Of a stretch of DNA of 64,000 nucleotides, positions 4,886 to 63,972 are shown in pieces. The DNA is taken from positions 1 through 64,000 of the IMG/VR virus record IMGVR_UViG_3300020718_000011. The stretch is one strand, 5' to 3'. Both the position numbers and the translations under genes were made by a program. Position 1 is the stretch's first letter, and each line of letters opens with the position of its first letter. The stretch is from a virus (lineage: Duplodnaviria; Heunggongvirae; Uroviricota; Caudoviricetes). Under the pieces are notes generated by a model. It ran no database searches. It worked only from the letters and a program-made list of their open reading frames with translations, and was not told the DNA's origin.

Positions 4886-4940
4886 TCTTTAACATTTAGT
4901 ATTTTTTTTGTCAAAGACTTTTTATTATATTTGTATGTTT
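4886..4940 (+). promoter_or_regulatory. class-A phage promoter (TCTTTAACA...TATATTTG)
   Basis: ttctttaacatttagtattttttttgtcaaagactttttattatatttgtatg; -7 box TATATTTG = Bacteroidota TAnnTTTG; about 15 nt before ATG 4955. Confidence 0.6.
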
Positions 4941-4954
4941 AAAAAATGTATTAA

Positions 4955-5290
4955 ATGAAACGACTATTTATACCATTACTGCTATTAATAGGAGCATGTA
5001 ACAATCCAGTAGCCCAGACAAATTTTGACAAGGTTAAGGCAGAACATCCAGCCGGGCGAATATTCTCGGAGCAGCCACAAGTAAATGGAAAAGACTGGGT
5101 TGTCCGGGAAGGGGATGCTATTTACAATGTAGAAATGGATCAAAATGGTGTCCCAAAATCTACATTATTAATTGAAAGGTGGAATCCAGCCTGGGATACT
5201 GCAACACCAAAGAAAGACACAGTTCCAGCAGATGCTCCTCCATTGGATAGTATTAAGAAACTAAACAATGATTCCATAACACACAAATAA
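4955..5290 (+). CDS. putative lipoprotein
   Basis: MKRLFIPLLLLIGACNN signal peptide and lipobox; preceded by canonical phage promoter. Confidence 0.5.
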   Translation: MKRLFIPLLLLIGACNNPVAQTNFDKVKAEHPAGRIFSEQPQVNGKDWVVREGDAIYNVEMDQNGVPKSTLLIERWNPAWDTATPKKDTVPADAPPLDSIKKLNNDSITHK

Positions 5291-5297
5291 TACCAAA

Positions 5298-5603
5298 ATG
5301 AGTTTACCAAAGAAAAGTTCGAACAATGCCAAAGGCATATCGTTAATCGCTTTCCTCCTTATTGGGGGATCAATTTTATTGTGGCAATGTACAGGAAATT
5401 ACCGAGCAAGGTATTTGGGTGGTAGCCAAACAATCAACCTTCCTGCCGGCCAGAAACTGATGAATGTTACCTGGAAGGACAATGAGATCTGGTATCTCAC
5501 ACAGCCAATGTCTCCGAATGAAGTTCCTGTAACTTCTACCTTCCACGAAAAATCTTCTAAGGGAGTTTTGGAGGGTACAATTATTATTAACGAGTCTAAA
5601 TAA
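5298..5603 (+). CDS. membrane protein
   Basis: 101 aa with an N-terminal TM helix (ISLIAFLLIGGSILLW); 8 nt after the upstream gene. Confidence 0.45.
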   Translation: MSLPKKSSNNAKGISLIAFLLIGGSILLWQCTGNYRARYLGGSQTINLPAGQKLMNVTWKDNEIWYLTQPMSPNEVPVTSTFHEKSSKGVLEGTIIINESK

Positions 5604-6025
5604 TTATTAGGGAAACCTGGAAAAAGTGGGTTATGTGGATTCCAGTGGCGGGGTTTTTAACCGTATCTAATCCCGACATAAAAAGGATACTGGATGATAA
5701 GAAATATCTATCCTGGATATATGGAATTTGGCAAGCCCTTGCAATTATTGGAATTATAATTTTAATGCAATATCCGCATGTTGGGAAGTAAACTAAAATG
5801 TGCTTCTGAGGTAATAATGGAACATTGAAAATTACTGATGGGGAATACAAAAATAAGGATAAGGGGAAATTCTATTTTGCTATTGATCCAGTAAATAAAG
5901 ATGCTAAAATCCAACTTTTACCAAAAATTGATGTGACAAGTAGATTTGTTAAAATGGAGCTGATAAAAATACTTTTATCTCAACCGGTAATAGAATAATA
6001 GAACAACTTTTAAAAGATAGAATCA

Positions 6026-6673
6026 ATGCTAAATAAGGATTCCACAAAGGAGGAGATATACCAGGAACTCCTAAAACGTACTGGATATAAAGACGACCAA
6101 GTAATCGAGGCTTATATGTACGGGTCTCGTGTATATGGTAATTCTCGGTCTGATTCGGACTGGGATTTTATTGTTATTATTAAAGCCAACCAAATTCATA
6201 CCGAACAATTTTCAGACAATTTAATAAACGTTAATTTCTATTACTTACACCAACATCACCAGAGGATTAATGAACACGAACCTTCTGCCCTGGAGTGCGT
6301 GTTTTTACCAGAAAAATTCATTCTTAAATTAAAGGACCCAAATTTTTATAAGTCCTTTAAACCAGACCTAGTTAAATTGAGACATGCTTTTTGTGCAAAG
6401 AGCTCTAATTCCTGGGTTAAGGCAAAGAAAAAATTAACAGTACCTGAATCATATAATGATAGCGTTGGAAAGAAATCATTATGGCATGCGATCCGTATAA
6501 TCTTTTATGGCATACAAATTTCTACGGAAGGAAAAATCACTAACTATGCCTGCTGTAATGGATTCTATGACAATGTTATGTATTGTAATGACTGGAGCGA
6601 ACTTTATGAAATATACAAAACCAAGTATAATGAGACACTAACAGAATTTCGTAAACACGCCAAAAAAGAATAG
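6026..6673 (+). CDS. Pol-beta-superfamily minimal nucleotidyltransferase
   Basis: YGSRVYGNSRSDSDWDFIVII fits the GS-x9-13-DxD nucleotidyltransferase signature; 215 aa. Confidence 0.5.
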   Translation: MLNKDSTKEEIYQELLKRTGYKDDQVIEAYMYGSRVYGNSRSDSDWDFIVIIKANQIHTEQFSDNLINVNFYYLHQHHQRINEHEPSALECVFLPEKFILKLKDPNFYKSFKPDLVKLRHAFCAKSSNSWVKAKKKLTVPESYNDSVGKKSLWHAIRIIFYGIQISTEGKITNYACCNGFYDNVMYCNDWSELYEIYKTKYNETLTEFRKHAKKE

Positions 6674-6674
6674 T

Positions 6675-6872
6675 ATGATTTTCACAGGAGGAAGGGATAA
6701 GCTTATGGAGGCTGCACAGAGACATCGTAATTTAGCTGGGAAATTACAACAGATTAAAGATCCAGACGAAAAAACTCTTCATAACATAGAAGCCCATATT
6801 CGCTGTGCTAATCGAATAACCTCATTATACGTATCTAAATATATTAGAAATTTACATAGCTCTGGATTATAA
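6675..6872 (+). CDS. small hypothetical protein
   Basis: 65 aa; TAATG-coupled to flanking genes. Confidence 0.35.
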   Translation: MIFTGGRDKLMEAAQRHRNLAGKLQQIKDPDEKTLHNIEAHIRCANRITSLYVSKYIRNLHSSGL

Positions 6873-7384
6873 TGGACACAAATAATATAGTTGAGAAAAT
6901 TGAGAAAATCCTAGGGATTAGGATAAAGAATATTGATCTCCAAACTCCTATTAAGGAAATTACCCATAAGGAAGCATTAACGGATTTGGATGCTGTTGAA
7001 AAGTATATCATTGAATTGCGTAGGGCTATCAAGAAAATGCCAGTAATAGTAGAGGCAGACCGAATACCTCCTGGGCTTGATCCACATCAGGTAATTTTGG
7101 AAACTGATAAGTGGCTCAAAGAAAGGAAAATGACAAATCCAGATTGGGAAATTCTTTGGATTCATCCTAAAACAGGACAAGTAGTATATTCCAAATATCT
7201 CTGCGATCCAGAAGACGATGGGTATATTAAAGGATTCCAAATAGCATTTGATATAAGCACTAATAAAATGATTTGCCGTAACTGCGATAATATTTGGGTA
7301 TCTTTAAATTCAAGGGGATTCGTAAGAGTAGAAGGCTCATTAGAAGAATTTAAAACAACTTATTCAAAATGGACAAACAAATAG
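6872..7384 (+). CDS. hypothetical protein
   Basis: 170-aa ORF; no recognisable motif. Confidence 0.5.
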   Translation: MDTNNIVEKIEKILGIRIKNIDLQTPIKEITHKEALTDLDAVEKYIIELRRAIKKMPVIVEADRIPPGLDPHQVILETDKWLKERKMTNPDWEILWIHPKTGQVVYSKYLCDPEDDGYIKGFQIAFDISTNKMICRNCDNIWVSLNSRGFVRVEGSLEEFKTTYSKWTNK

Positions 7385-9268: not shown

Positions 9269-9291
9269 AATAGCTTTTAAGATTTTATATA

Positions 9292-9346
9292 ATCTTTAAC
9301 ATTTAGTATTTTTTTATTCAAAAACAATTTATTACTTTTGTCTTAT
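9292..9346 (+). promoter_or_regulatory. class-A phage promoter
   Basis: atctttaacatttagtatttttttattcaaaaacaatttattacttttgtcttata; -7 box TACTTTTG; drives 9359. Confidence 0.6.
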
Positions 9347-13484: not shown

Positions 13485-13784
13485 ATGCGTACCGAAGAAG
13501 AAATAAAGGTGAAGCTGATCTCTCTTAGAGAGGTTGCTCATGATATACAGAAGAGAAGCGATAAACTATTTAGGGAAATGAGTGAAGGTCTTGGTCATCT
13601 GCCAATGGAAAGATTAGAATCCATTAATGAAGAAATTGGCATGATGAGGAATAGAGCTTTTGAACTTTTGGCAAACGCACGAGCCATGAAATGGTGTCTT
13701 GGTGAAATTGACGATATTGATTTCGCGATGAATACCGCTGCTGGAATCATAGAAAACGCACAGGATGGCTTTGATACTTTATAA
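13485..13784 (+). CDS. hypothetical protein
   Basis: 99-aa ORF. Confidence 0.4.
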   Translation: MRTEEEIKVKLISLREVAHDIQKRSDKLFREMSEGLGHLPMERLESINEEIGMMRNRAFELLANARAMKWCLGEIDDIDFAMNTAAGIIENAQDGFDTL

Positions 13785-13785
13785 A

Positions 13786-13845
13786 TTCTTTAACACTTGG
13801 AATTTTTTTATTCAAGAACAATTTATTACATTTGTCTTATATAAA
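13786..13845 (+). promoter_or_regulatory. class-A phage promoter
   Basis: ttctttaacacttggaatttttttattcaagaacaatttattacatttgtcttatat; TACATTTG; drives 13851. Confidence 0.6.
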
Positions 13846-21905: not shown

Positions 21906-21916
21906 ATTTTATATTA

Positions 21917-27442: not shown

Positions 27443-27453
27443 TTTAACTTCTT

Positions 27454-43313: not shown

Positions 43314-43321
43314 TTTTATAA

Positions 43322-47135: not shown

Positions 47136-47282
47136 TTTATAAAGTAGCTTTAATTTATATAAACGATAAAATAGAATATCCATCTATTCCCGAAATTTTA
47201 TAGCAATAAAAAGCAAAGGAAATAGAACGTCTCTTGGTCTTTAAAACCTCTCCTGTTTCTGGATTAAATAAATCTAATGTGC

Positions 47283-47582
47283 TCACATTAAAATCATATT
47301 TACGTCCAATATATCCGGAATTTTTTGTTTGCTAACGGTTGTAAAAATTCTAATCACATCATATGGTTTAATTCCTTCATCAAATTCTGCAACAAAATAT
47401 CTATCATTTTGATACAAAACATTAAACATAAAGGAACCCTTCCCTTCAAAATGTTTTATAATATAAGGAAGTAAGTCCTCCGGAATGCTTGAATTTGTGG
47501 TAGATATCATGATATAATTACCAAGACTAAATAGTGCTTTAGTCCAATCACTTAATTGTTCATATATCTTTAGATACTTCAT
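47283..47582 (-). CDS. small protein with family N-terminal motif only
   Basis: MKYLKIYEQLSDW N-terminus but no LLKRK tail; ATGA-coupled to the upstream gene. Confidence 0.4.
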   Translation of the reverse strand: MKYLKIYEQLSDWTKALFSLGNYIMISTTNSSIPEDLLPYIIKHFEGKGSFMFNVLYQNDRYFVAEFDEGIKPYDVIRIFTTVSKQKIPDILDVNMILM

Positions 47583-48385: not shown

Positions 48386-48420
48386 TACTTATATATATTC
48401 GATATCTACCTTAAATATTT

Positions 48421-48480
48421 CTTAACGTTTCATTAACAATACATATTTTTTTCGTCAGAACTTTTTATGTACTTTTGTGT
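48421..48480 (+). promoter_or_regulatory. class-A phage promoter (variant)
   Basis: ttcttaacgtttcattaacaatacatatttttttcgtcagaactttttatgtacttttgtgtatat; TACTTTTG box; drives 48509. Confidence 0.45.
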
Positions 48481-50603: not shown

Positions 50604-51074
50604 TAAATATGTGGATAAAATAACCAAAAGTGTTAGAACCTACAAAGACCGGAGTTAAGAAAAGTATATCACAATCTACAAGGATGGTAAAAATTACATA
50701 TAATGGAATTTCTATGTTAGCAGTAGCAATTAGTTTTGTTAGTGGAGCATATTATATGGAAAAATATTATCTACTACAAGATGGTAATATAGGTTTAGAG
50801 TATGGGGATTTTGATTCTATAGTTGGCATGAATCCATCCGAATTATTTAATAGTAAAATGTAATCTATTATAGATTTACCTTCATTATAATAGATAGAAA
50901 TTAATTAGGATTATCCCATAATCCCACCTCCGGTTTATGGATCCGGAAAAAGGAATCCCCTTCAATAGTTTGCGGGAAAACATTAAAGGTTTGTTAATGA
51001 CATTTGCATTCAGGTTTACAAAAAAAATGCAAACTCGCCCGAAGCACCCCCGCGGAATTTTCGGAGAACATATT

Positions 51075-51155
51075 TAACAAAGATTTAACAATGGAATTTT
51101 TTTTATTCAAGAACTATTATTATCGCGGGCGTGTGTGCGGGCTTCTTATTATTAT
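51075..51155 (+). repeat. promoter-like element with the -7 box replaced by a GC-rich block
   Basis: agatttaacaatggaatttttttattcaagaactattattatcgcgggcgtgtgtgcgggc; upstream half is class-A promoter, downstream half is a GC island related to the 56491 and 56615 blocks. Confidence 0.5.
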
Positions 51156-51177
51156 AAAAATTCAAGGAGTTTCTTAA

Positions 51178-51830: not shown

Positions 51831-51891
51831 CCTAATTTTTAGAAAACTTATTACGCATAACGAAAACGCACACAATTAAATTCCTTAACAA

Positions 51892-51950
51892 ATCTTTAAC
51901 TTAAAAAATTTTTTTATCTTGAAAACATGCTTTATATTTGCTTTATCAAT
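51892..51950 (+). promoter_or_regulatory. class-A phage promoter
   Basis: aatctttaacttaaaaaatttttttatcttgaaaacatgctttatatttgctttatca; drives 51984; this sequence block is duplicated at 56850. Confidence 0.55.
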
Positions 51951-51983
51951 TTAATTATTAACAATTAAACAAGTTTAAAAAAA

Positions 51984-52526
51984 ATGGAAAAGACAGCATC
52001 GGCCAACACGGCCACAGACACAAAAACAACCGGAGCACAGGGTGCAGAGGTTGTAGTAACAGAGCAGCCTGCTGCAAGCAGCGTTAGCATCGTTCCAACA
52101 GCGGTAGCCGTAGAGGTACCAAAAGTTCGCCTGTTCTGGCAGAAAGCGTGCGGATCTATGAAGGATTCTACCCTTACGCCAATTAAAGACGACGAAGTAT
52201 TTGTAAGGACCTCTCACCAGGTAGGCGTTATCCCTGCCGGCGCACCGGATGGCACTGCACCAGTTGCAGAGACCGTTTACAGCATGAAGCGCGGTAAAAG
52301 GATCTACTACACACCTTCTTCTTTCATTACCGATGCACAGCGTCTCGCTGCTGATACCGCGACTGACCTCAAGGTAAAAGAGAAAGAGGCAGCAGCCAAG
52401 GTAAAGGCTGATGAAAAAGCCAAGAAAGAGCAGGCGAAAAAGGATGCGGCAGCAGCCGGTCCAAAAGTAGTAGCTGGCCCAACAGTGGTAGCGGCTCCGG
52501 CAACAATTACCGAAAAATCTCTCTAA
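51984..52526 (+). CDS. Ala/Lys/Thr-rich protein, paralog A of a duplicated pair
   Basis: Core VPKVRLFWQKACGS..TLTPIKDDEVFVRT.H.VGVIPAGA..GTAPV..VYSMKRGKRIYYTPSSFITDAQR with AKVKADEKAKKEQAKKDAAAAGPKVVAG tail; GC and codon usage above background; own promoter and bidirectional terminator. Confidence 0.55.
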   Translation: MEKTASANTATDTKTTGAQGAEVVVTEQPAASSVSIVPTAVAVEVPKVRLFWQKACGSMKDSTLTPIKDDEVFVRTSHQVGVIPAGAPDGTAPVAETVYSMKRGKRIYYTPSSFITDAQRLAADTATDLKVKEKEAAAKVKADEKAKKEQAKKDAAAAGPKVVAGPTVVAAPATITEKSL

Positions 52527-52543: not shown

Positions 52544-52582
52544 AAAAGAAAAACATCAGCTTAGTGCTGGTGTTTTTCTTTT
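52544..52582. terminator. bidirectional intrinsic terminator between convergent genes
   Basis: aaaagaaaaacatcagc-ttagt-gctggtgtttttctttt: about 17-bp stem with A-rich 5' arm and U-rich 3' arm, between 51984-52526(+) and 52561-53394(-). Confidence 0.6.
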
Positions 52583-53394
52583 GTCCAATTTAATTTATTT
52601 CGTTTGCTTTGATTATCAGGAGCCCATAATGGCTGGAAATTTGTATAATGGTTCAATCTTATAATTTCTTTTTGGGTAGTAGCGGAACTAGATGGTATAA
52701 TATGATCAATTTGCCATAGATTTCTATTATCCCACGACATTCCTTCCCAAAATTGAGATTCTATATGAATTTTAAATTGTTCTATGGTACATCCTAATAT
52801 TTCTTGGGAACGTGAATTTTTACTAAATCCATTATTTTTTAGGGATTGCCTTATTAGGTTACTTGTCTCTTTAGAAAACTTAAATAAGGGATCTCTTTTT
52901 AATCTCTCTTTTATATAATTACCATTTCTTTTAGCGATGGCTTTTTTATTTTCTATATAATATTGTTTTTTATCAATGGAGACTTTATTCTTGTTTTTTA
53001 GATATTTCTCTTTATCCTTTTCTATCCTTTTCTCCTTATGTAATTGATATGATTTTTTGTTATTAGATAATATTTTCTCTTTATTTAATTGATAGAGCTC
53101 TCTTCTACGTGCTAATTTTTCTTCCCTATTTGCTTGATAGAGTTCTTTTTTACGAGTTAATTCCTTATCCTTATTTAGTTTATAATATTCTCTTTTATTG
53201 GAATTTATTTCATCCCTTTTTAATTGTCTATTTTCTCTCCTTCTTTTTAATTTCTCTCCCTTGTTTAATTTATAAAGCTCATTTCTATTAGATAATTTTT
53301 CCTCGTGTGTCATATAGTATTTTATATTAACTATATATTTAAGTTTCAACCGGGGTATGCTTGTGTTTATCCAATCCATCTTTGATCGATTCAT
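52561..53394 (-). CDS. HNH homing endonuclease
   Basis: DPLFKF..ILGCTIE..W..DHIIPSSSA..NHYTNFQPLW..DN..KRN; long Lys/Glu/Tyr repeat N-terminus; likely true start MTHEEK (about 53313), which is preceded by an ATATATA box. Confidence 0.8.
   Translation of the reverse strand: MNRSKMDWINTSIPRLKLKYIVNIKYYMTHEEKLSNRNELYKLNKGEKLKRRRENRQLKRDEINSNKREYYKLNKDKELTRKKELYQANREEKLARRRELYQLNKEKILSNNKKSYQLHKEKRIEKDKEKYLKNKNKVSIDKKQYYIENKKAIAKRNGNYIKERLKRDPLFKFSKETSNLIRQSLKNNGFSKNSRSQEILGCTIEQFKIHIESQFWEGMSWDNRNLWQIDHIIPSSSATTQKEIIRLNHYTNFQPLWAPDNQSKRNKLNWTKEKHQH
53329..53340 (-). promoter_or_regulatory. class-B ATATATA box
   Basis: Minus strand reads aaatatatagttaatataaaatactatATG before the probable internal start of HNH 52561-53394. 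Confidence 0.3.
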
Positions 53395-53468
53395 TGGTCG
53401 AGGGAGCGCCCCGCAATTCAGTAAGAAATTTAATAAAATCAGTAAAAGTGGAAAGATATATAGGGTAT

Positions 53469-53822
53469 ATGAAAACTATAAAAGAATTTGATAACTATAC
53501 TCCTCTTAATGAGGATGAAACTACCGGTGGCTCTTTTGACGTAGCTAGGTTTAGTATTGCTGTTAAAAGGTGTGCAGCAGCATTGGAAGAACATGATATA
53601 GGTAAATTTGTTAGTATCTACAGCAGCCAGATAAAGAGTGTAATTAATAGTCCAGAAGCTCGTCAGAGAACGGATTTAATTAAACAATTGGCAGAAAGTA
53701 TCGAGATAGCAAAGGAAGGAATGAGCCCAGAAGAAAAGAGAGAGGTATTTGTTCTTATTATGCCTAAACTAACAGAGCAAATAGATAAAGATCCTGAGTT
53801 AAGGGCTAAGTACGAAATATAG
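53469..53822 (+). CDS. hypothetical protein
   Basis: Track ORF 53361-53822 overlaps the HNH gene start; trimmed to Met MKTIKEFDNY. Confidence 0.4.
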   Translation: MKTIKEFDNYTPLNEDETTGGSFDVARFSIAVKRCAAALEEHDIGKFVSIYSSQIKSVINSPEARQRTDLIKQLAESIEIAKEGMSPEEKREVFVLIMPKLTEQIDKDPELRAKYEI

Positions 53823-53861
53823 GTTAGAGATCCCCCTGGAGGCCCCTTGTGTAAGAGAAGA

Positions 53862-54317
53862 TTAATGTATTCTTTGGAAGTCTGGTTCTGGCCAGACTTT
53901 TTTATTGTAGGCTTCCATTAGAATTTTCACTACGTGTTCAAATATAAATGGGATTTCTCCCATTTCAAAGGTTCTTATAGTAGAAGGTACCAAAGGATCT
54001 AATTCCGTTGCGTTGTATTCCTGTCCTTGTAAAACATTAAAAAACCAATTAGATTTTTCTATATCATAATATAGTATACATAAAACACCTACATCTTTAT
54101 AGATATCCTCTTCTGTGGAGTTCCCATATACATATGTGGATTGTGTCCAAAGAGAATTTGGATTAGGTAAAATATAATCAACCCTAGTTGTTATATGAAC
54201 AGCAGGCATTACCCACTTAGTCATAGCTGCTTGTGCATTCCTATAATGAGATAGCATAAAAAGAATGAGGATAATAATAAACACATTAGTCCCCCCTATG
54301 GGCCCCTTGTGTTCCAT
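53862..54317 (-). CDS. hypothetical membrane-anchored protein flanked by direct repeats
   Basis: 151 aa; N-terminal TM helix; the CDS is bracketed by near-identical 22-bp direct repeats containing GGCCCCTTGTGT. Confidence 0.45.
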   Translation of the reverse strand: MEHKGPIGGTNVFIIILILFMLSHYRNAQAAMTKWVMPAVHITTRVDYILPNPNSLWTQSTYVYGNSTEEDIYKDVGVLCILYYDIEKSNWFFNVLQGQEYNATELDPLVPSTIRTFEMGEIPFIFEHVVKILMEAYNKKVWPEPDFQRIH

Positions 54318-54580
54318 TATACCGTTACTTTAATGATGAGGATTTTATCTTTATATTTGTCCGTAGATTGCTCTAAGGTTTCGACGCGGAAGGTCTCGTT
54401 GGGCTTTGCTACGTGTTTATTAAGAAACTCTCCGACTGAGATTTTAGTTCCCTTATGTTCACCAGTAAACCCTATATCATCGAGTGCGTCTTTATGAGAT
54501 TTGATTAGTCTTAGTTGCGCCCAGTTCTCTGATTTACCCTGGACTCTTGTTACACGAAAGGTCTCGATTTTAACTGCCAT
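54317..54580 (-). CDS. hypothetical protein
   Basis: 87 aa with internal ETFRVTRVQG / ETFRVETLEQ repeat. Confidence 0.4.
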   Translation of the reverse strand: MAVKIETFRVTRVQGKSENWAQLRLIKSHKDALDDIGFTGEHKGTKISVGEFLNKHVAKPNETFRVETLEQSTDKYKDKILIIKVTV

Positions 54581-54908
54581 GGTTCGTGGTAGATTTAATT
54601 AGTTAGATAATTGTAATGGGGTTATTTCTTCTTTACGAAGTACTTATAGTATAGAACCGCACAAATGATAATTGCTACTACCATATATGCTTGAGGTTCC
54701 GTTTCTGCCTGTAGAAATAATGGACTTCGGATATGGAGAGTGGAAACTTGCATATTGGTATCGTTTTTGAGGATAAGTCAATAAAATGATATTAACAAAA
54801 TCTTAGAGCAAATTTAATGAAAAGTTAACAAATAAAAAAATCCAAAATGTTAAATTTGCGTTAAAGAATTTTAACATCTCCCGGCTTAATTCTGTATACT
54901 TATTTCCT

Positions 54909-54919
54909 GATATATAGAT
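54909..54919 (+). promoter_or_regulatory. class-B ATATATA box (T4-late-like)
   Basis: gatatatagat ends 3 nt before the ATG of GIY-YIG gene 54922. Confidence 0.3.
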
Positions 54920-54921
54920 TT

Positions 54922-55734
54922 ATGAAAGGTTATATTTATAAAATAACAAGCCCATCTGGTAAAGTTTATATAGGTCAAACTAAAAATATTTCTAATAGGA
55001 AGAATAGTTATAAAGGATTTAATACTCCTAGCACTTCTATAAAAGCTCAAATTAAATTATATAATAGTCTTAGTAAATATGGATGGGATAATCATAAATT
55101 TGAAGTTATAGATGAATGTCAATTTTGTGGTATTAATAATTGGCTATTGGATTCTTTAGAAATTCATTGGATAAATGAATATGATAGTTTTAATAATGGA
55201 TTAAACTGTACTAAAGGTGGATCTGGCCAGTGCGGACATAAACATTCAATAGAAGCTAAACTAAAAATGGGTAACTCAATGAAGGGAAGGGTTATGTCAG
55301 AGCAAACTAAACAAAAAATAAGTAATTCAAACAAAGGAATACTTATTCACACAAAAAGAAAACCTCTTTCTGATGAGACCAAACAAAGAATAAGTAATTC
55401 AAATAAAGGAAGAACTCATGCTAAATACGAGAGAACCCCTCATTCAGAGGAAACTAAACAAAAGATGAGTAATTCTCAAAAGGGTAGGGTACCATCAGAA
55501 GAAACTAAAAAGAAAATAAGTAATTCTAAAAAAGGAACGGTATGTTCAGAAGAAACTAAACAAAAGATGAGTAATTCTCAAAAGGGTAGGGTTACATCAG
55601 AAGAAACTAAACAAAAAATAAGTAGTTCACACAAAGGAAAGAAACAAATCCCGCATTCAGAAGAAACTAAAAAGAAAATAAGTAATTCTCTTAAGTCAAA
55701 GAAAACTAATTTGAATAATCTACTTCTATTCTAA
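54922..55734 (+). CDS. GIY-YIG homing endonuclease with NUMOD3-like repeats
   Basis: MKGYIYKITSPSGKVYIGQT (GIY-YIG), KYGWDNHKFEVI, NGLNCTKGG; about 7 repeated SEETKQKISNS(N/Q)KG(R) modules; ATATATA box upstream. Confidence 0.8.
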   Translation: MKGYIYKITSPSGKVYIGQTKNISNRKNSYKGFNTPSTSIKAQIKLYNSLSKYGWDNHKFEVIDECQFCGINNWLLDSLEIHWINEYDSFNNGLNCTKGGSGQCGHKHSIEAKLKMGNSMKGRVMSEQTKQKISNSNKGILIHTKRKPLSDETKQRISNSNKGRTHAKYERTPHSEETKQKMSNSQKGRVPSEETKKKISNSKKGTVCSEETKQKMSNSQKGRVTSEETKQKISSSHKGKKQIPHSEETKKKISNSLKSKKTNLNNLLLF

Positions 55735-56344
55735 AATTTGATATAGGTTGGTCTTCAATAATAAGGAGTAACTTAGATATAAGTTCTGCCCTATTTAGTG
55801 AACCTGCTAATGAGAATGTTACCTGGGAGTGAACTGGTACAGTTTCAATTGGTGGTGCCGGAGGTTGTATTGGTCCTTGGTGCTGTATAATTGGACTAAC
55901 ATCCAAGATAATAGTTTCTTGGTCTTTGGTCTTTACCTGTACTTGTTGTTTGGCTTTTGCTCTTTCATCGAGTATAGCCTGTCTTTCACGTTTCTCTTTT
56001 TCTTTGTGTTCCTTTTTGGCCTTCTTGAGTTTGTATTCCTCAGACGAATAATATGTGTAAGCCTTTTGATTAAGTTCGTAGATCGCTCCAGTTACTCTGG
56101 TAGCCAAATGAACTGCAGTTGTATTAGAAGGTTTGGAGTACTTCCAATCAAATACAAAGCCACCTAGTTTTGAGCTTTCCAATATTTCCAATACTCCCAT
56201 CTCTTCTAATACCTTAAAGAAGCGAGCATCTAATTTATGGTCTTCTATAAATGCGGTTTTTTTAATGGGAACCACCTTCTGTACCATATCCTGTAGTACA
56301 TTTAGTGCGTCTGTGTAATTTTCTATACTAAGTTGTTGTGACAT
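55706..56344 (-). CDS. hypothetical protein
   Basis: Track ORF starts at 56380; Met MSQQLSIENY chosen; Lys/Glu-rich coiled-coil middle and Pro-rich segment. Confidence 0.45.
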   Translation of the reverse strand: MSQQLSIENYTDALNVLQDMVQKVVPIKKTAFIEDHKLDARFFKVLEEMGVLEILESSKLGGFVFDWKYSKPSNTTAVHLATRVTGAIYELNQKAYTYYSSEEYKLKKAKKEHKEKEKRERQAILDERAKAKQQVQVKTKDQETIILDVSPIIQHQGPIQPPAPPIETVPVHSQVTFSLAGSLNRAELISKLLLIIEDQPISNFRIEVDYSN

Positions 56345-56443
56345 TTTTAAGAAAGAATTTAATATAACGTAAATATACATAAAATATTTTAAGGTTAAAA
56401 ATCAATAGCTGTAATATTTTGTTAAAGAAATTATTTATACACA

Positions 56444-56625
56444 TTAACAACTCCCTAACAATTTATTCAAAAACTATTGTTTATTATTCGCGCTCGTGCG
56501 CCCACCCGCGCGAGGAGAATTTCGCAGAGGCACCCCCGCGCATGATATTACAATGAGTTTAAAAGCTTTAACAACTCCCTAACAATTTATTCAAAAACTA
56601 TTGTTTATTATTCACACGAGCGTAC
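56444..56625. repeat. two 47-bp perfect direct repeats, each abutting a GC-rich quasi-palindrome
   Basis: TTAACAACTCCCTAACAATTTATTCAAAAACTATTGTTTATTATTC at 56444-56490 and 56568-56614; followed by gcgctcgtgcgcccacccgcgcg and, inverted, cacgagcgtacgcgcacgc. Confidence 0.7.
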
Positions 56626-56701
56626 GCGCACGCACTTTTTTATATTTATATCAAAAATTCAAAGAGTTTACACAAAGAGTTGGGTCTCTACTCTTTTAAT
56701 T

Positions 56702-56775
56702 TTCTTTAACATTACCTTAACAACATTTATTTTTTTATTTTGAAACGATTCTTTAAATTTGCTTCAACAATTTAA
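56702..56775 (+). promoter_or_regulatory. class-A phage promoter (upstream copy of a tandem pair)
   Basis: ttctttaacattaccttaacaacatttatttttttattttgaaacgattctttaaatttgcttcaaca; TAAATTTG box. Confidence 0.45.
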
Positions 56776-56849
56776 TTATTAACAATACAAAAAATAATTA
56801 AAATGGAGTATAAAAAAACGAAACGAAACTCTATTAAATTCATTAACAA

Positions 56850-56910
56850 ATCTTTAACTTTAAAAATTTTTTTATCTTAAAACGATTTCTTAAATTTGCT
56901 TTATCAATTT
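56850..56910 (+). promoter_or_regulatory. class-A phage promoter
   Basis: atctttaactttaaaaatttttttatcttaaaacgatttcttaaatttgctttatca; drives 56940. Confidence 0.55.
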
Positions 56911-56939
56911 AATTATTAATAATCAAAAATCAAAAAAAA

Positions 56940-57653
56940 ATGAGCAACAACAAACACAGTAAAGGACGCGGCGCAGCCGGTCACACAACAGGCAGCGAGC
57001 ACACTTCTGCTGAACACACTGACACTGCAATCGACACTGCAATCGACACTGCAGAACACACTGACACCGCAACGGAAGAAACCAAAACGGAAACTACCGA
57101 GGCCAGCGCAGAACACACCGACCCCGCAACAGAAACTGCAGAACACACAGAGCCAGCACCAGAAGTGAAAGTTACTGAAACACCTGCTGCTTCTACCCTG
57201 TCTATCGTGCCAACCGCAGTGGCCAAGGAAGTACCAAAAGTTCGTCTCTTCTGGCAGAAAGCGTGCGGATCAATAAAAGAAAGCACTCTCACCCCTATCA
57301 AGGATGATGAAGTATTCGTTCGCACTGCCCACACCGTAGGTGTCATCCCTGCAGGTGCAGCAGAAGGTACTGCACCTGTTATCGAAATCGTTTACAGCAT
57401 GAAGCGCGGTAAAAGGATCTACTACACACCTTCTTCTTTCATTACCGATGCACAGCGCGTTGCAGCCGACCTGGCCACTAATACGAAGAACGCAGAAAAG
57501 GAAACCGCAGCCAAAGTAAAGGCTGATGAAAAACTGAAAAAAGAGCAGGCGAAAAAGGACGCAGCCGCAGCCGGTCCTAAGGTAGTAGCGGGAGCAACAA
57601 TAGTTGCCGCACCAGCAGCAGCCACAGAAACCGCTACCGAAGAAGTAAAATAA
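56940..57653 (+). CDS. Ala/Lys/Thr-rich protein, paralog B
   Basis: Same conserved core and AKVKADEKLKKEQAKKDAAAAGPKVVAG tail as 51984-52526, plus N-terminal AEHTDTAIDTAIDTAEHTDTA repeats; tandem promoters upstream; terminator downstream. Confidence 0.55.
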   Translation: MSNNKHSKGRGAAGHTTGSEHTSAEHTDTAIDTAIDTAEHTDTATEETKTETTEASAEHTDPATETAEHTEPAPEVKVTETPAASTLSIVPTAVAKEVPKVRLFWQKACGSIKESTLTPIKDDEVFVRTAHTVGVIPAGAAEGTAPVIEIVYSMKRGKRIYYTPSSFITDAQRVAADLATNTKNAEKETAAKVKADEKLKKEQAKKDAAAAGPKVVAGATIVAAPAAATETATEEVK

Positions 57654-57711
57654 GAATATCCCATTTCGGGTATCATATTAAAGATGTCCGTGGCGGATTA
57701 GGTTAGAGAAC

Positions 57712-57748
57712 AAAACCCCGGCGGCGTAAGCTCGCTGGGGTTTTCTGT
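57712..57748 (+). terminator. intrinsic terminator after paralog B
   Basis: aaaaccccggcggcgtaagctcgctggggttttctgtg: stem AAAACCCC/GGGGTTTT with an extended inner stem, then a T-run; followed by the 14-bp palindrome tgtgtagctacaca. Confidence 0.6.
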
Positions 57749-57812
57749 GTAGCTACACATCTTAAAAAATCATATATTATTAAACACTGGACCGATGGGT
57801 TGTAGAGGGCGC

Positions 57813-58400
57813 CTACAAAATTTTATTACTTTTCCATATGTTATCAGAAGCCCATAATGGTTGAAAATTACTGTAATGGTTTAATTTAATTATCTCATCC
57901 TCGTTGGTTGCACTATCTATTGGTATGATATGGTCAAAATGCCATTTACCATAATTAGACCAATCCATTCCTTCCGTAAATTTATTCTCAATCCATATTT
58001 TAAATTCCTCATAAGAGCAGCCAAGTATTTGGTAAGTAGAGGATTTTTTCGTATAACCATTTCTACGAATACTTTGTGCTATGGTTCTTTTAATCTTTTG
58101 GTGTAATTTATAAAGTGGATCTACCTTCATTCTTTCTCTAAGACGTAATTTCCTTCTACTACTTCTCTCTTCTTTTGTTAGTGGTATTTTAGGTTCCTTT
58201 TTTGGAAGTTTTTCGTAGCATCTCTTTTTGGCAGCTACGCATTTCTCTTTATTGTTTTTATAATACTCTTTTTGGTATTCCTTCTTACTTTCCTTATTTC
58301 TTTCATACCATTCTGCCATTCCAGTCCTTTTGTGCATAATTTTTATTTTTATATATCTAATGTTTACGTCTCGAAAACCAGGAATTCTGTGTTTATACAC
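57813..58400 (-). CDS. HNH homing endonuclease
   Basis: DPLYKL..ILGCSYEEFKIW..DHIIPIDSA..NHYSNFQPLW..DN..KSN; true start probably an internal Met (MHKRTG/MAEWYER), which is preceded by an ATATATA box. Confidence 0.75.
   Translation of the reverse strand: MYKHRIPGFRDVNIRYIKIKIMHKRTGMAEWYERNKESKKEYQKEYYKNNKEKCVAAKKRCYEKLPKKEPKIPLTKEERSSRRKLRLRERMKVDPLYKLHQKIKRTIAQSIRRNGYTKKSSTYQILGCSYEEFKIWIENKFTEGMDWSNYGKWHFDHIIPIDSATNEDEIIKLNHYSNFQPLWASDNIWKSNKIL
58349..58360 (-). promoter_or_regulatory. class-B ATATATA box
   Basis: Minus strand reads agatatataaaaataaaaattATG before the internal start of HNH 57813-58400. Confidence 0.3.
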
Positions 58401-58403
58401 ATT

Positions 58404-58461
58404 CTTTAACGTTATCTTAACAAATAGTATTTCACAATACAGAAACGATTTGTTATATTTG
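58404..58461 (+). promoter_or_regulatory. class-A phage promoter with no downstream protein gene
   Basis: ttctttaacgttatcttaacaaatagtatttcacaatacagaaacgatttgttatatttg; TATATTTG; about 190 nt later an intrinsic terminator, no substantial ORF. Confidence 0.45.
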
Positions 58462-58464
58462 CTT

Positions 58465-58661
58465 TTTAATAATAATTATTTAAGCGTACCTAAATTGTTT
58501 GACTATGATAAGGAATAAAGGTTCTCCATAAGTAGTAACTTATTTATTATATTATATTTAGATTATGTCCGAAGACCGAATAAGTCCAGAGTAGGAAAAG
58601 ATTAATTTAGTTTGAGAATGGCAGGATAGAATTAGTTACTATTCTGCCATTTTTGTTTTTT
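58465..58661 (+). ncRNA. candidate about 190-nt non-coding transcript (promoter to terminator, no ORF)
   Basis: Class-A promoter 58404-58461 followed by only tiny ORFs (under 12 codons) and the strong terminator at 58617-58661. Confidence 0.3.
58617..58661 (+). terminator. plus-strand intrinsic terminator
   Basis: tggcaggatag-aattagtta-ctattctgcca: 11-bp stem (one G.U), then TTTTTGTTTTTT; overlaps the 3' end of minus-strand GIY-YIG gene. Confidence 0.6.
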
Positions 58662-59330
58662 AGAGTGAGCTATCTTTAATGAATTACTCATCTTTTGTTT
58701 GGCTTCAGGAGTATTAAATTTTTCCTTCATCATAAGTTTTAATTTTAACTTATGCTCATCAGATAATGGTTTTCTTTTAGCCCTATTATTACCTTCCCTA
58801 ATTTTTTGTTTAGTCTCTTCAGATATAGGATTTCTAGTTTTACCCTTTAATGAGATGGATATTTTCTTCTTAGTTTCATCCGTAACAAATTTACGTTTAT
58901 CTATTTTTGGTTGATCTATTTTAGCCTTAGCTATTTTTGGTTTACTATCTCTATCTTTTATTAATCCCAATAAATTTCTATTTTTATTTCCTTTTAATGA
59001 ATTGGATATTTTTATTTTCATCTCTTCGGATATACTAGTAGTTCCACCACCTCCTTCCGTACAATTTAATCCATCCTTAAATGAGTTAAATTTAGAAATC
59101 CAGTATATCTCTCTTTCAAAAAGTATAGGGTCCTTATTATTATCCAATGTGAGTTCTTCTATTACTTCTTTAGTATGATTCTCCCATCCATATTTATTTA
59201 CGGACCAATATAATTTATGTTGTTTCCTATCAACTCCATATTTATATCTTTCGTTTATACTATTTTTAGTTGTACACCCTATATAAATACGTCCGGTTGG
59301 GCTAGTAATTTTATAGATAAGTCCTTTCAT
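58632..59330 (-). CDS. GIY-YIG homing endonuclease with NUMOD3-like repeats
   Basis: MKGLIYKITSPTGRIYIGCT, KYGWENHTKEVIEEL, DGLNCTEGGGG; repeated SEEMKIKISNSLKG / TDETKKKISISLKG / SEETKQKIREGN modules. Confidence 0.8.
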   Translation of the reverse strand: MKGLIYKITSPTGRIYIGCTTKNSINERYKYGVDRKQHKLYWSVNKYGWENHTKEVIEELTLDNNKDPILFEREIYWISKFNSFKDGLNCTEGGGGTTSISEEMKIKISNSLKGNKNRNLLGLIKDRDSKPKIAKAKIDQPKIDKRKFVTDETKKKISISLKGKTRNPISEETKQKIREGNNRAKRKPLSDEHKLKLKLMMKEKFNTPEAKQKMSNSLKIAHSKKQKWQNSN

Positions 59331-59520: not shown

Positions 59521-59620
59521 CAGAAGTAATTATAATATCATCAATAATGCCCCCGGGGTGGTGCTGAAATTTTGACACCAAAATAAAGACCTTCTGTGGT
59601 CAGGTAAAAATACTTTATAA

Positions 59621-59680
59621 TTTCTTTAACGATGGTAATTTTTTTATTTGATAACTATTTATTACATTTGTCTTATAATT
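59621..59680 (+). promoter_or_regulatory. class-A phage promoter
   Basis: ttctttaacgatggtaatttttttatttgataactatttattacatttgtcttata; drives 59687. Confidence 0.6.
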
Positions 59681-59686
59681 TTTTAT

Positions 59687-60031
59687 ATGAAACTTTCAAA
59701 GATAGTAGACCACATACAAACGATGCCACAGGGACTTAATGCCGAGGCACGTGATAAACATTGGTCCAAGCTAAAATTAACCGAAAACGAGATGCTATTA
59801 GCAGAGCGTTACTATAATGTAGAATGCTATGTTAGCTTACCAGATTGGGGAAGGTTTTGGTTAATGTGGGATATGTCTAACGGTCACAAGGGAGGTAAAG
59901 GTTATATGTGGGTGTTCCGTACTAAAAAGGAAGCTCTTGACCATAAGAGAGACCAGAAAAAAAGAGGTGGTGCTTCTTTAAGTTTACCACAAAAGGTGGA
60001 AATACCAAACCGTAAGAATATTTACAATTAA
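59687..60031 (+). CDS. hypothetical protein
   Basis: Track ORF begins with a TTG inside promoter 59621-59680; ATG Met MKLSKIVDH chosen. Confidence 0.45.
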   Translation: MKLSKIVDHIQTMPQGLNAEARDKHWSKLKLTENEMLLAERYYNVECYVSLPDWGRFWLMWDMSNGHKGGKGYMWVFRTKKEALDHKRDQKKRGGASLSLPQKVEIPNRKNIYN

Positions 60032-60044
60032 CTACTTTATATAA

Positions 60045-60098
60045 TCTTTAACGCTGGTAATTTTTTAATTTGAATACTATTTATTACATTTGTATTAA
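60045..60098 (+). promoter_or_regulatory. class-A phage promoter
   Basis: aatctttaacgctggtaattttttaatttgaatactatttattacatttgtattaag; drives 60114. Confidence 0.6.
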
Positions 60099-62597: not shown

Positions 62598-62598
62598 T

Positions 62599-62829
62599 AT
62601 GAGCTTTGTATTTACACCAATAGCAGGTTTACAATGTGAGGATAGCTACTTACATGGAGCAGGAAATCGGGACACAATGGGATATTCTGGATTTATCGAA
62701 TATGTTGGACCAGATTATTTCATACTAAGAATTTTTAGTGCACCTGACGAGTTACCAATAATAGTATACAAAAAAAGCTATCACGCAATACAGGAAAACG
62801 ATTTTGAACCTTCAAGAAGTAAAGGATGA
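62599..62829 (+). CDS. hypothetical protein
   Basis: 76-aa ORF. Confidence 0.4.
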   Translation: MSFVFTPIAGLQCEDSYLHGAGNRDTMGYSGFIEYVGPDYFILRIFSAPDELPIIVYKKSYHAIQENDFEPSRSKG

Positions 62830-63101
62830 AGAGATATAAAGTAATCTCCCCTAATTTTGGTGGAGTCGATAAGTTCGATGAAGATTGGTTGTTTCTGGTC
62901 ATGGGTATTAAAATAGAAATGACCAATATCGTAATGACCCGATTAAAAAAACTACCGGGTACTGACGTTAAGGAGATACAGGATGATGGTGTTGTCCAGG
63001 ACATAACCTCTTTCTATGCTAACCTAAACGAAAAACAATTGGAACAAATAAGAGCATTAGGTTTCTACTGCTCTGAACAACATGGTGCATTTAATCCTTA
63101 A
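62826..63101 (+). CDS. hypothetical protein
   Basis: 91 aa; ATGA overlap. Confidence 0.4.
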   Translation: MKRYKVISPNFGGVDKFDEDWLFLVMGIKIEMTNIVMTRLKKLPGTDVKEIQDDGVVQDITSFYANLNEKQLEQIRALGFYCSEQHGAFNP

Positions 63102-63150
63102 CAAATTCTTAACAAAGACTATTAAAACTATTCTTTATATTTGTATCTAA
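63095..63150 (+). promoter_or_regulatory. class-A phage promoter (short-spacer variant)
   Basis: cttaacaaattcttaacaaagactattaaaactattctttatatttgtatcta; drives 63163. Confidence 0.45.
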
Positions 63151-63162
63151 AATTAAATTTCT

Positions 63163-63477
63163 ATGTCAGTAAGAATTCGATCCACCTGCGATAAGCATGC
63201 AGGTCGCGCACTGGGTATCTCCGATGAACGTATCCAACAATTTGAAGAGGTAATTCAAAACATCCTCCAAAAGAACGAGAGGATTTGTTACACCAGAATA
63301 GGTGAGATCGTATCCCAACAACTCGACCTGAACGAGAAGGAGCTATTCTTCGTTGGTATGATGATTGGTGGTCTCGCCCAGTTCAACATGATAGTAGAAG
63401 GTGCAATACGTGCCAGCGAGATGATGAACATCGACGATTCTCCTGTACCTGTTGTAAAACAAATGGCTTACGCATGA
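63163..63477 (+). CDS. hypothetical protein
   Basis: 104 aa after promoter 63095-63150. Confidence 0.45.
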   Translation: MSVRIRSTCDKHAGRALGISDERIQQFEEVIQNILQKNERICYTRIGEIVSQQLDLNEKELFFVGMMIGGLAQFNMIVEGAIRASEMMNIDDSPVPVVKQMAYA

Positions 63478-63776
63478 AACGTAAACTAAAGAAATGGCTA
63501 TATGGTCCGAGTGTGTATGTACACAAGGGTAATAATCTTTGGGTACTTCGAGAACCTAATGTACCCAAGCCAACAAAACCATTATTTAAAACATTATGGT
63601 ATTTTGGTATGGGTATTCTAACTCAAATAGTTCTCATAAGTTTCGCAGGTTACTTATTTGGGAAACACGAATACCTTATTTGGTTAATAATGTTAGTACC
63701 TATTTCCATTCTTCTTGGTTCACTTAGGGAACTATTCAAAGAGTTTAAACATTATCTTTACTACCACGCTTTTTAA
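63474..63776 (+). CDS. membrane protein
   Basis: 100 aa, two TM helices; ATGA overlap. Confidence 0.45.
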   Translation: MKRKLKKWLYGPSVYVHKGNNLWVLREPNVPKPTKPLFKTLWYFGMGILTQIVLISFAGYLFGKHEYLIWLIMLVPISILLGSLRELFKEFKHYLYYHAF

Positions 63777-63915
63777 TTTCTCATCCCCCATAAACCTCCT
63801 GGCATTCTCCGTAAAGAGTGCCTTTTTTTTGACCAATTATATTATAAATATGAAGATATATTTTTTGCGGGGGTGCCTCACCTATATTTTAAATACAAGC
63901 AAACTACTTTATAAA

Positions 63916-63972
63916 ATCTTTAACAAATCTATTTGACAAACTTATTAAATTATTTCATACATTTGTATTAAT
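63916..63972 (+). promoter_or_regulatory. class-A phage promoter
   Basis: aatctttaacaaatctatttgacaaacttattaaattatttcatacatttgtattaat; a truncated ORF (MRMIK) starts at about 63986. Confidence 0.5.

Follow-up and report, generated by a model that had tools for sequence, protein, structure and literature searches.

The DNA described here, referred to as the window, comprises 64,000 nucleotides (positions 1 to 64,000) of the IMG/VR virus record IMGVR_UViG_3300020718_000011, assigned to the Caudoviricetes. The window contains 127 open reading frames (ORFs), 92 on the plus and 35 on the minus strand, of which about one-fifth match any family in Pfam or PHROGs. Its gene content includes RtcB, Mu Gam, endonuclease VII, several homing endonucleases of the GIY-YIG and HNH types and large, repeat-rich, fibre-like proteins, and it looks like part of a large phage. 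The nearest RtcB homologs are found in uncultured phages of 735 kb and 363 kb. No tRNAs were found in the window, and a megablast search with 24 kb of it against 50,697 phage records gave no match, leaving it with no cultured relative in that collection. Distributed between the genes is a repeat unit of about 70 bp, called the cassette below, which resembles a promoter of the Bacteroidota and is the subject of this report.

The -7 box of Bacteroidota promoters that depend on the primary sigma factor (sigma-A) has been placed at positions -12 to -5 (T-12, A-11, T-8, T-7, T-6 and G-5) and refined to TAHHTTTG (PMC6847099, PMC9723704). The position scale used here takes the -7 box as -12 to -5. 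All 18 copies of the cassette carry TA[ACT][AT]TTTG, with no G at the two variable positions, and the downstream box thus matches the sigma-A element, as a preliminary description of this DNA had proposed. That description gave the box as invariably TA(c/t)(a/t)TTTG; TAnnTTTG is indeed present in every copy, but three of them read TAAATTTG. A run of six to eight T residues, mostly without a G, occupies -36 to -30 in 13 of the 18 copies. The classical -33 element is TTTG, about 19-21 nt upstream of the -7 box (PMC7366714), and this motif is weak or absent in the literature (PMC6847099, PMC7366714). Since the T run coincides with that element, the earlier claim that it lies off the canonical spacing is wrong: the run is at the -33 position and merely lacks the G. 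A GAAAC-like block is found near -24 to -20.

Upstream of the -33 position, the proximal box TTAAC(A) lies at -49 to -44, ending 32-33 nt before the TA of the -7 box in 18 of 18 copies. A distal element is located 11 nt, or one helical turn, further upstream and divides the copies into two classes. In class A (n = 10), it is a CTTTATA-type sequence, yTTTATAww, a relative of CTTTAACA; nine of the ten copies with a single TTAAC have this type of element at the 11-nt distance. In class B (n = 8), the distal element is a second TTAAC, so that the two boxes are 11 nt apart. Because the distal element sits 11 nt upstream of TCTTTAACA, the conserved block, although real, is about 70 nt long rather than the 55 previously given. 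The classes also differ downstream. In class A, the box is followed by T (TTTG-T) and the leaders are 7-22 nt, while a TTTG-C context is found in six of eight class B copies, and three class B copies share the leader CTTTATCAATTTAATTATTAACAAT. The start codon follows the G of the box at a distance of 11-26 nt in single-box copies and 16-43 nt in double-box copies, figures that correct the 10-25 nt first reported, and two copies (-7 boxes at 56754 and 58454) have no real ORF behind them.

All 17 copies listed in the preliminary description (16 plus, 1 minus) were found, with coordinates good to within 1 nt. That list was, however, incomplete. The full count in the window is 18 (16 plus, 2 minus), the additional copy being a minus-strand cassette with two TTAAC boxes and its -7 box at 54816-54809, and three degenerate copies were also unlisted. 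The strict upstream pattern with up to three mismatches had five matches in the window and none in 100 dinucleotide shuffles. An ungapped weight matrix of 67 nt, built from copies anchored on the TAnnTTTG box and applied by leave-one-out (LOO) scoring, gave 27-66 bits for 15 copies, compared to a top score of 16.9 bits over 100 dinucleotide-shuffled windows. The remaining three (-7 boxes at 40038, 63136 and 63958) score low on this matrix solely because their spacing is off by 1 nt, and TTAAC is still found 33 nt before TA. That the copy at 63136 is a 10-bp-shorter variant was ruled out, as its boxes lie at the canonical 33 nt and, additionally, at 22 nt. Of all 7-mers in the window, CTTTAAC shows the strongest intergenic enrichment, with 17 of its 24 occurrences in intergenic DNA, which makes up 9.8% of the window. 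The copies are listed below; L numbers denote other sequences used for comparison.

4864-4933 (+), class A: distal element CTTTTATATTT, then TCTTTAACA and a T8 run; -7 box TATATTTG at 4926-4933; predicted transcription start about 4938; ATG at 4955; LOO 57 bits; ortholog in L240 90% identical, without homology beyond the start codon.
9271-9340 (+), class A: -7 box TACTTTTG at 9333-9340; no mismatches to the strict pattern; LOO 61 bits; heads ten co-directional genes from 9359 (AlgH-like, AAA, HD and others).
13765-13834 (+), class A: -7 box TACATTTG at 13827-13834; ATG at 13851; LOO 60 bits.
21895-21964 (+), class A: -7 box TATATTTG at 21957-21964; ATG at 21982; LOO 66 bits.
31819-31888 (+), class A: -7 box TATATTTG at 31881-31888; ATG at 31908; LOO 57 bits.
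39976-40045 (+), class B without a T run: TTAAC gaps of 44 and 33 nt to TA; -7 box TATATTTG at 40038-40045; likely ATG at 40062.
43302-43371 (+), class A (TTTTTAACA): -7 box TATATTTG at 43364-43371; ATG at 43398; LOO 45 bits; orthologous region in L232 79% identical.
47087-47156 (-), class A: -7 box TACATTTG at 47094-47087; ATG at 47075; LOO 54 bits.
48408-48477 (+), class B: TTAAC gaps of 43 and 32 nt; T7 run; -7 box TACTTTTG at 48470-48477; likely ATG at 48509; LOO 27 bits.
51871-51940 (+), class B: -7 box TATATTTG at 51933-51940; leader CTTTATCAATTTAATTATTAACAAT; ATG at 51984; LOO 42 bits; 95.6% identical to L216, over the cassette only.
54809-54878 (-), class B: -7 box TAAATTTG at 54816-54809; TTAAC gaps of 43 and 32 nt; LOO 37 bits.
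56692-56761 (+), class B: -7 box TAAATTTG at 56754-56761; LOO 47 bits; behind it only a micro-ORF of 25 codons, overlapping the next cassette.
56829-56898 (+), class B with the conserved leader: -7 box TAAATTTG at 56891-56898; ATG at 56940; LOO 50 bits.
58392-58461 (+), class B without a T run: -7 box TATATTTG at 58454-58461; no ORF behind; LOO 40 bits.
59601-59670 (+), class A: -7 box TACATTTG at 59663-59670; ATG at 59687; LOO 60 bits; the L216 homology patch here ends at 59678.
60023-60092 (+), class A: -7 box TACATTTG at 60085-60092; ATG at 60114; LOO 54 bits.
63074-63143 (+), variant without a T run: TTAAC 33 and 22 nt before TA; -7 box TATATTTG at 63136-63143; ATG at 63163.
63896-63965 (+), class A-like without a T run: TTAAC gap of 33 nt; -7 box TACATTTG at 63958-63965; ATG at 63986.
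51067-51129 (+), degenerate class C: two TTAAC boxes, a T8 run and TTCAAGAAC; TATCGCGG at the -7 position; GC-rich hairpin after; 13.9 bits.
56443-56492 (+), degenerate class C: TTAACA, CTAACA and ATTCAAAAAC; TATTCGCG at the -7 position; GC-rich hairpin after.
56566-56616 (+), degenerate class C: near-duplicate of 56443-56492; TATTCACA at the -7 position; then GC-rich sequence and a T run.

The 18 full cassettes are all intergenic and point in the same direction as the next gene. There are 72 TAHHTTTG octamers in the window, of which 16 lie 5-60 nt before a co-directional start, compared to 4.1 expected. All 16 of these well-placed boxes belong to TTAAC-bearing cassettes, which leaves the phage with essentially a single type of -7-box promoter. 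Over the left 40 kb, the cassettes are 4-10 kb apart and head runs of one to ten genes, whereas they are denser in the right 24 kb. Judged by this placement, the cassettes constitute a real and well-defined family of putative promoters. It is hardly credible that they are something else altogether, such as replication iterons, packaging signals or remnants of small mobile elements. The cassettes are, it is true, direct repeats with helical phasing, and the three degenerate copies, which lack a -7 box, abut GC-rich hairpins. However, the cassettes always have the orientation of the next gene, lie 11-43 nt before start codons, are not clustered but distributed across 59 kb, where they head gene runs, and carry a perfect host -7 box.

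The preliminary description also took the rightward bias of the copies as a sign of strand-segregated transcription. This idea was rejected, since, with 92 ORFs on the plus and 35 on the minus strand, a ratio of 16:2 does not reach significance (P ~0.09).

Two observations concern copies without a gene. Behind 58392-58461, only the peptide MIRNKGSP* could be encoded; a strong terminator-like hairpin at about 58615-58660, some 170 nt downstream, could act both ways, and 58466-58660 (+) is a candidate for a phage small RNA of about 190 nt. The class C copies with their following sequence (51067-51177, 56443-56556 and 56566-56650) retain the upstream half of the cassette, with its TTAAC boxes and ATTCAAAAAC, and have TAtyCGCG/TATTCACA instead of the -7 box. 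They could be decoys, could give rise to very short transcripts, or could mark the junctions of a GC-rich element that was inserted.

Assignment of the phage to a Bacteroidota host was originally made from the -7 box. It holds, being backed, independently of the motif, by the translation signals, the lack of sigma-70 enrichment and a shared IS1595 element, and the data support a freshwater, non-Bacteroides lineage within this phylum, at present best guessed to be Chitinophagales- or Flavobacteriales-like. A Shine-Dalgarno core precedes 7.9% of genes, compared to 10.7% in random 16-mers, while A is enriched at -11 to -13 (0.49-0.61) and at -3 before start codons. This is the pattern of translation starts in Bacteroidetes, which lack a Shine-Dalgarno sequence and are A-rich at -11 to -13 (PMC6847099). 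In none of the three thirds of the window do sigma-70-type sites exceed the number expected from shuffles, and sigma-70 promoters were rejected on these grounds.

The IS1595/ISXO2-family insertion sequence (IS) at about 41329-42325 (+), with its transposase at 41390-42286, is inserted just after the stop of the gene at 40618-41343. It is 92% identical at the nucleotide level (95-96% in protein) to elements in two freshwater metagenome-assembled genomes (MAGs) labelled "uncultured Bacteroidetes". The homology to the bacterial copies is confined to the element and stops at its ends. The next five copies compared, from MAGs of Chitinophagales, Ferruginibacter (two), Bacteroidia and Chitinophagaceae, are 74-77% identical, and nearly all of the best 80 loci are from Bacteroidota. 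Flavobacterium sp. NK2020 has more than 20 copies of a relative with 74-76% protein identity.

The cassette shares with canonical sigma-A promoters of this phylum the -7 box without G at its variable positions, a T-rich -33 region, short leaders without a Shine-Dalgarno sequence and A at -11 to -13. It differs in that its -33 element is a T7 run without G and in the additional TTAAC boxes at -47 and -58. To our knowledge, no host promoters with conserved TTAAC boxes at these two positions have been reported. Large phages often encode their own transcription machinery, and a phage sigma factor or phage RNA polymerase might read the cassettes, in which case the likeness to TAnnTTTG would be coincidental. 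The closest RtcB homologs, from the 363-kb and 735-kb phages, and the length of the cassette, which far exceeds a minimal host promoter, agree with this idea. It is nevertheless very unlikely. Six near-invariant positions of TAHHTTTG are matched in 18 of 18 copies at the right distance from the start codon, and plain TAnnTTTG boxes also precede genes in L213, a distant huge-phage relative. Equivalent promoters of Bacteroides phages work with the host polymerase alone, and no sigma, helix-turn-helix, RNA polymerase or transcription-regulation families were found among the 127 ORFs of the window (Pfam, PHROGs).

The TTAAC boxes are not confined to the window and its relatives. In at least seven other phage lineages, which share no detectable similarity with one another or with the window, one to three TTAAC boxes are found in 11-nt phase before TAHHTTTG, with several such promoters per short locus and unrelated sequences between the boxes. 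Across these lineages, and excluding copies selected by the scan itself, the offsets from TTAAC to TA show two sharp peaks, one of 25 among 101 boxes at 32-33 nt and one of 12 boxes at 42-44 nt, compared to 0-2 at other distances. One unrelated lineage (L120, L214 and L254; IMGVR_UViG_3300034105_003891 and relatives) has a cassette of its own at least nine times in 6 kb, CACCGTGAGAAAAC-TTTAACGTTT-N26-TTCT-TATATTTG-CT..GTAATTAAAAC, with TTAAC 33 nt before TA. In the lineages of L251 and L215, perfect inverted repeats, which may be operators, are located between the box and the -7 element.

Promoters of Bacteroides phages are built on a similar plan. Whitaker, Shepherd and Sonnenburg (Cell 2017), the source of P_BfP1E6, reportedly gave the consensus GTTAA(n)4-7GTTAA(n)34-38TA(n)2TTTG. 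Five sites of this GTTAA type were found in the cultured Bacteroides phage B124-14, all intergenic, on the coding strand and with a common leader. The agreement in promoter architecture with a cultured Bacteroides phage is a further line of evidence for a Bacteroidota host. Like the cassette, these promoters have TAnnTTTG after two short direct repeats with a TTAA core 11 bp apart, are repeated before several genes on the coding strand, and have an A/T-rich leader with ATTAyTAACAAT. The B124-14 boxes, two copies of TGTTAAA 11 nt apart at 36 and 47 nt before TA, are the same heptamer as TTTAACA on the opposite strand. Compared to them, the window box is inverted and about 5 bp nearer to the core, ending 32-33 nt rather than 36 nt before TA. 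Instead of a GTTAA box 34-38 nt before TA on the promoter strand, the cassettes have yTTAAC(A) at 32-33 nt. Owing to this inversion and spacing, the window cassette is a variant and not the same motif as the B124-14 type. Peculiar to the window are also the class A copies with one true TTAAC plus CTTTATA, the T7 run at -33 and a freshwater, non-Bacteroides host. P_BfP1E6 has been described as carrying "UP elements" together with a -7 consensus. Its activity is constitutive in B. thetaiotaomicron free of phage, extends to several other species and is about five times that of P_rRNA and P_rpoD (10.1101/2025.03.18.644028; PMC11554821).

The leader motif ATTA(T/C)TAACAAT lies about 20-28 nt after the -7 box in class B transcripts of this phage group, both in the window (51945-51983, 56766-56802 and 56903-56939) and in L216, L232, L233 and L265, as well as at the five repeated promoters of B124-14 (L132). 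Its role may be to enhance translation by ribosomes that work without Shine-Dalgarno sequences.

The upstream (UP) element of the E. coli rrnB P1 promoter offers a second comparison. Its sub-sites are A/T tracts centred near -42 and -52 and are bound by the C-terminal domain of the RNA polymerase alpha subunit (alpha-CTD). The UP element and the cassette alike have paired sub-sites, separated by about one helical turn and located upstream of the point contacted by sigma region 4. UP elements make very strong promoters with no extra factor, and the latter also holds for the Bacteroides phage analogue. By contrast, the cassette has a specific TTAAC core centred near -47 and -58, although its position and phasing are compatible with alpha-CTD. 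We know of no demonstration of alpha-CTD binding in any Bacteroidota. The earlier suggestion that the upstream block is a UP-like element or a regulator site is reasonable.

Taken together, the cassettes are probably strong promoters for the host sigma-A RNA polymerase, in which the phased TTAAC boxes act as UP-like elements read by the host, and which also serve as recombination points. According to this model, the host RNA polymerase with sigma-A would read each copy as a complete strong promoter, recognizing TA[ACT][AT]TTTG at -12 to -5 as the -7 element, with the -33 position filled by the T7 run at -36 to -30. Transcription would start about 5 nt after the G, producing short A/T-rich leaders (a predicted 7-39 nt) without a Shine-Dalgarno sequence. 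The phased boxes would be UP-like docking sites for a host component, most likely the alpha-CTDs and possibly another conserved host DNA-binding protein. By raising recruitment, they would give phage genes an advantage over host promoters, probably at an early stage of infection and with no need for a phage protein. The analysis shows directly the sequence anatomy, its statistics, the orientation of the copies, their conservation among phages and the host phylum; the start sites, the timing and the identity of the TTAAC reader are inferred. As the cassette is repeated before many small accessory genes, its 70 bp could in addition serve as a homology patch for gene exchange between related phages.

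Several points weigh against a host-read UP-like element. The role of the cassettes is deduced from sequence, and because the window covers a larger genome only in part, a phage regulator may be encoded outside it. E. coli UP elements are A/T tracts without a C/G-containing core and are about 5 bp closer to the start. TTAAC is more sequence-specific than a typical alpha-CTD site, and a dedicated DNA-binding protein would fit equally well. The B124-14 box is inverted and about 5 bp farther from the core, which is difficult to reconcile with one rigid reader. P_BfP1E6 presumably contains the GTTAA boxes, to judge by the pattern test in B124-14. Finally, TTAAC 32-33 nt before TAHHTTTG gave no peak in 262 kb of Bacteroidota fragments, a small sample consisting mostly of IS flanks, so that this negative carries little weight.

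As the main alternative, the TTAAC boxes could bind a phage-encoded regulator at sigma-A promoters, either a middle-gene activator like MotA of phage T4 or an early-gene repressor, and set the timing of expression rather than its basal strength. Short, specific direct repeats with an 11-bp period and a fixed distance to the core are a pattern of dimeric or tandem-binding factors, and the whole 60-nt region is conserved beyond what a core promoter needs. Classes A and B, with their different distal boxes, +1 contexts and leaders, could be differently regulated, and in a partial window, the regulator gene could be elsewhere. T4 middle promoters likewise combine a phage-specific box with a host sigma core element. 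However, the MotA box at -30 replaces the -35 element, whereas the cassette retains the -33 position and has its boxes further upstream, at -47 and -58. Proteins resembling MotA or AsiA were not found in the window, which is a partial genome (Pfam, PHROGs), nor does any of its 127 ORFs belong to a DNA-binding or transcription-regulation family. The related promoter of Bacteroides phages is very strong even in cells that contain no phage protein. Moreover, the same box is found at the same distance in at least seven lineages without detectable shared genes in the fetched DNA, and a host reader is therefore a more economical explanation than a phage regulator, which appears rather doubtful.

The idea that cassettes are points of exchange comes from comparison with related phages. 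Scans of sequence collections relied on a 21-base pattern, which replaced a 16-base pattern that gave single chance matches. A sensitive blastn search with one cassette gave only chance-level matches (E >= 0.06). By pattern scans, the extended cassette was found in IMG/VR contigs and many metagenome contigs, especially those of Ga0316224, Ga0214178 and Ga0214207. Some of the Ga0316224 contigs are true relatives, with patches that are 75-96% identical to the window. With the first set of IMG/VR relatives, the shared DNA consists almost solely of the cassettes plus a single conserved block of some 100 nt that is non-coding. In L240, which has the ortholog of the 4864-4933 cassette, the divergent gene, the cassette and the leader are 87-90% identical, with identity at random level from the start codon on. 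Overall, 5 of 28 ends of homology patches fall inside cassettes, compared to 0.8 expected (P = 0.0012). The best reading of these patterns is that cassettes mark mosaic boundaries between related phages.

A precedent exists in the promoter-early stem-loop (PeSL) cassettes of T4-like phages (PMC2839356, PMC4122927). These are likewise early-type promoters repeated before small, variable ORFs in plastic regions, where they coincide with the end points of homology. Unlike PeSLs, the cassettes have no stem-loop or terminator half, and they represent a different type of host promoter. Terminator-like hairpins in the 1-40 kb region numbered 13 compared to 11.5 expected and 9 compared to 10.1 expected, and none of them adjoins a cassette.

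The uniformity of the cassettes might then be mainly evolutionary and not regulatory, reflecting recent descent or gene conversion, instead of a binding site, in a mobile PeSL-like cassette that spreads with the small accessory genes of a hyperplastic region and mediates their recombination. This would account for the near-exclusive sharing of cassettes and one non-coding block with several related contigs, for the breaks in homology at cassettes and for a region rich in small ORFs without known families, and it has the PeSL concept as a model. We consider it unlikely as the main cause. The stem-loop component is missing, with no excess of hairpins in 1-40 kb, and common descent fails to account for a constant position of TTAAC in unrelated lineages where the sequences between the boxes differ completely. 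Such spread is, in any case, compatible with host-read strong promoters and does not exclude them.

Genes without a cassette often carry a second motif, (G/A)ATATATA(G/A), or RATATATAR, 3-17 nt before the ATG. Many of these sites are on the minus strand in divergent intergenic regions. In the window, nine of ten occurrences precede an ORF:

RATATATAR, minus strand: 9267, 29717, 39731, 51820, 53339, 58357 and 59343.
RATATATAR, plus strand: 53455 and 54909.

Among the genes so preceded are two of the GIY-YIG type, one HNH gene and the gene that opens the fibre-like cluster. The relatives (221 kb) contain 31 occurrences, 18 of them before an ORF, compared to 7-16% for control 9-mers of the same composition. 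The motif is also present in L216, L222, L232, L244, L247, L250, L262 and L264. Judging from its placement, RATATATAR could be a second, late-like promoter class or a translation signal; a promoter at this position would give mRNAs with almost no leader. Several transcription classes, as previously suggested, are thus plausible because genes without a cassette often carry RATATATAR, but not on account of the strand bias, which is not significant.

A broader scheme that joins the two motifs is tentative, though possible. TTAAC boxes at about -47 and -58, with further turns, would be a phylum-wide upstream code, read by a conserved host component such as the alpha-CTD or some other host protein and adopted independently by unrelated phages, ranging from siphoviruses of gut Bacteroides to large phages of freshwater, for super-strong early promoters. 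RATATATAR would then mark a late class read by a phage factor, from which structural genes and homing endonucleases would be expressed as nearly leaderless mRNAs.

Bacteroidota phage promoters with upstream repeats are already known, and the cassette is not a new class of element. Modestly new are the box geometry across unrelated environmental phages, the inversion relative to the Bacteroides motif and the location of cassettes at mosaic boundaries. The combination of the -7 box, TTAAC at a fixed distance and the lack of Shine-Dalgarno sequences could provide a sequence-only signature of the host phylum for uncultured phages. The cassettes would also be natural, probably very strong promoters for Flavobacteriia, Chitinophagia and their relatives, where genetic tools are scarce; P_BfP1E6, their Bacteroides counterpart, is already a workhorse part. 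For transcription biology, the geometry points to an upstream-promoter recognition step in Bacteroidota. With respect to the evolution of genomes, the findings suggest a role of repeated promoters as exchange points for accessory genes beyond the T4-like phages, where this was first described.

The conserved non-coding block of about 100 nt lies at 38981-39083 in the intergenic region 38707-39141 and contains …CCTTGGAAGTGCATTTTGGTCGATTTTAAGCATGAAATTTTAAATCCAAAAT…GAAGAAATAGG. It is 79-91% conserved while the flanking genes differ, and it also occurs at 167-214 of the window and in L131 (3700-3802), L126 (1786-1888) and L232 (119-362). On the minus strand, it has a TAATTTTG box. It has no Rfam match and may be a conserved leader or a small RNA. 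More generally, no Rfam families were found at gathering thresholds in the whole window, with only chance-level matches at 50.4-59.7 kb and none at 38.65-40.1 kb.

Homing endonuclease genes are clustered at 52561-59330, where they are free-standing and interleaved with cassettes and GC-rich segments, with no group I intron detected by Rfam. The cluster includes endonuclease VII-like matches and the following genes:

52561-53394: HNH endonuclease.
54922-55734: GIY-YIG/NUMOD3 endonuclease.
58632-59330: GIY-YIG/NUMOD3 endonuclease.

Two paralogs at 51984-52526 (+) and 56940-57653 (+) have a core VPKVRLFWQKACGS.K.STLTPIKDDEVFVRT…YSMKRGKRIYYTPSSFITDAQR and low-complexity ends rich in Ala, Thr and Lys. 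Each is located behind a class B cassette with the conserved leader, and neither has a family match.

Three large proteins with Asn/Ser/Thr/Gly repeats (500, 608 and 577 aa) are encoded at 23657-29506 (-) and are presumably tail-fibre-like. None of them has a PHROG match, and the 577-aa protein had no tblastn match in the 50,697 phage records. The 608- and 577-aa proteins share the N-terminus M(S/G)LIL(K/R)(R/Q)DKGS(R/K)LT. The 608-aa protein also has a C-terminal segment that starts with Cys and appears Hint-like by eye, with no Pfam family detected.

Finally, a paralog family of 200-310 aa with the C-terminal motif …(A/L)(N/T)KLTKA..LLKRK and no Pfam match is encoded on both strands:

29748-30539 (-): LTKA..LLKRK family.
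30567-31229 (+): LTKA..LLKRK family.
39142-39717 (-): LTKA..LLKRK family.
40618-41343 (+): LTKA..LLKRK family.
44740-45552 (-): LTKA..LLKRK family.
45621-46559 (-): LTKA..LLKRK family.
47579-48385 (-): LTKA..LLKRK family.

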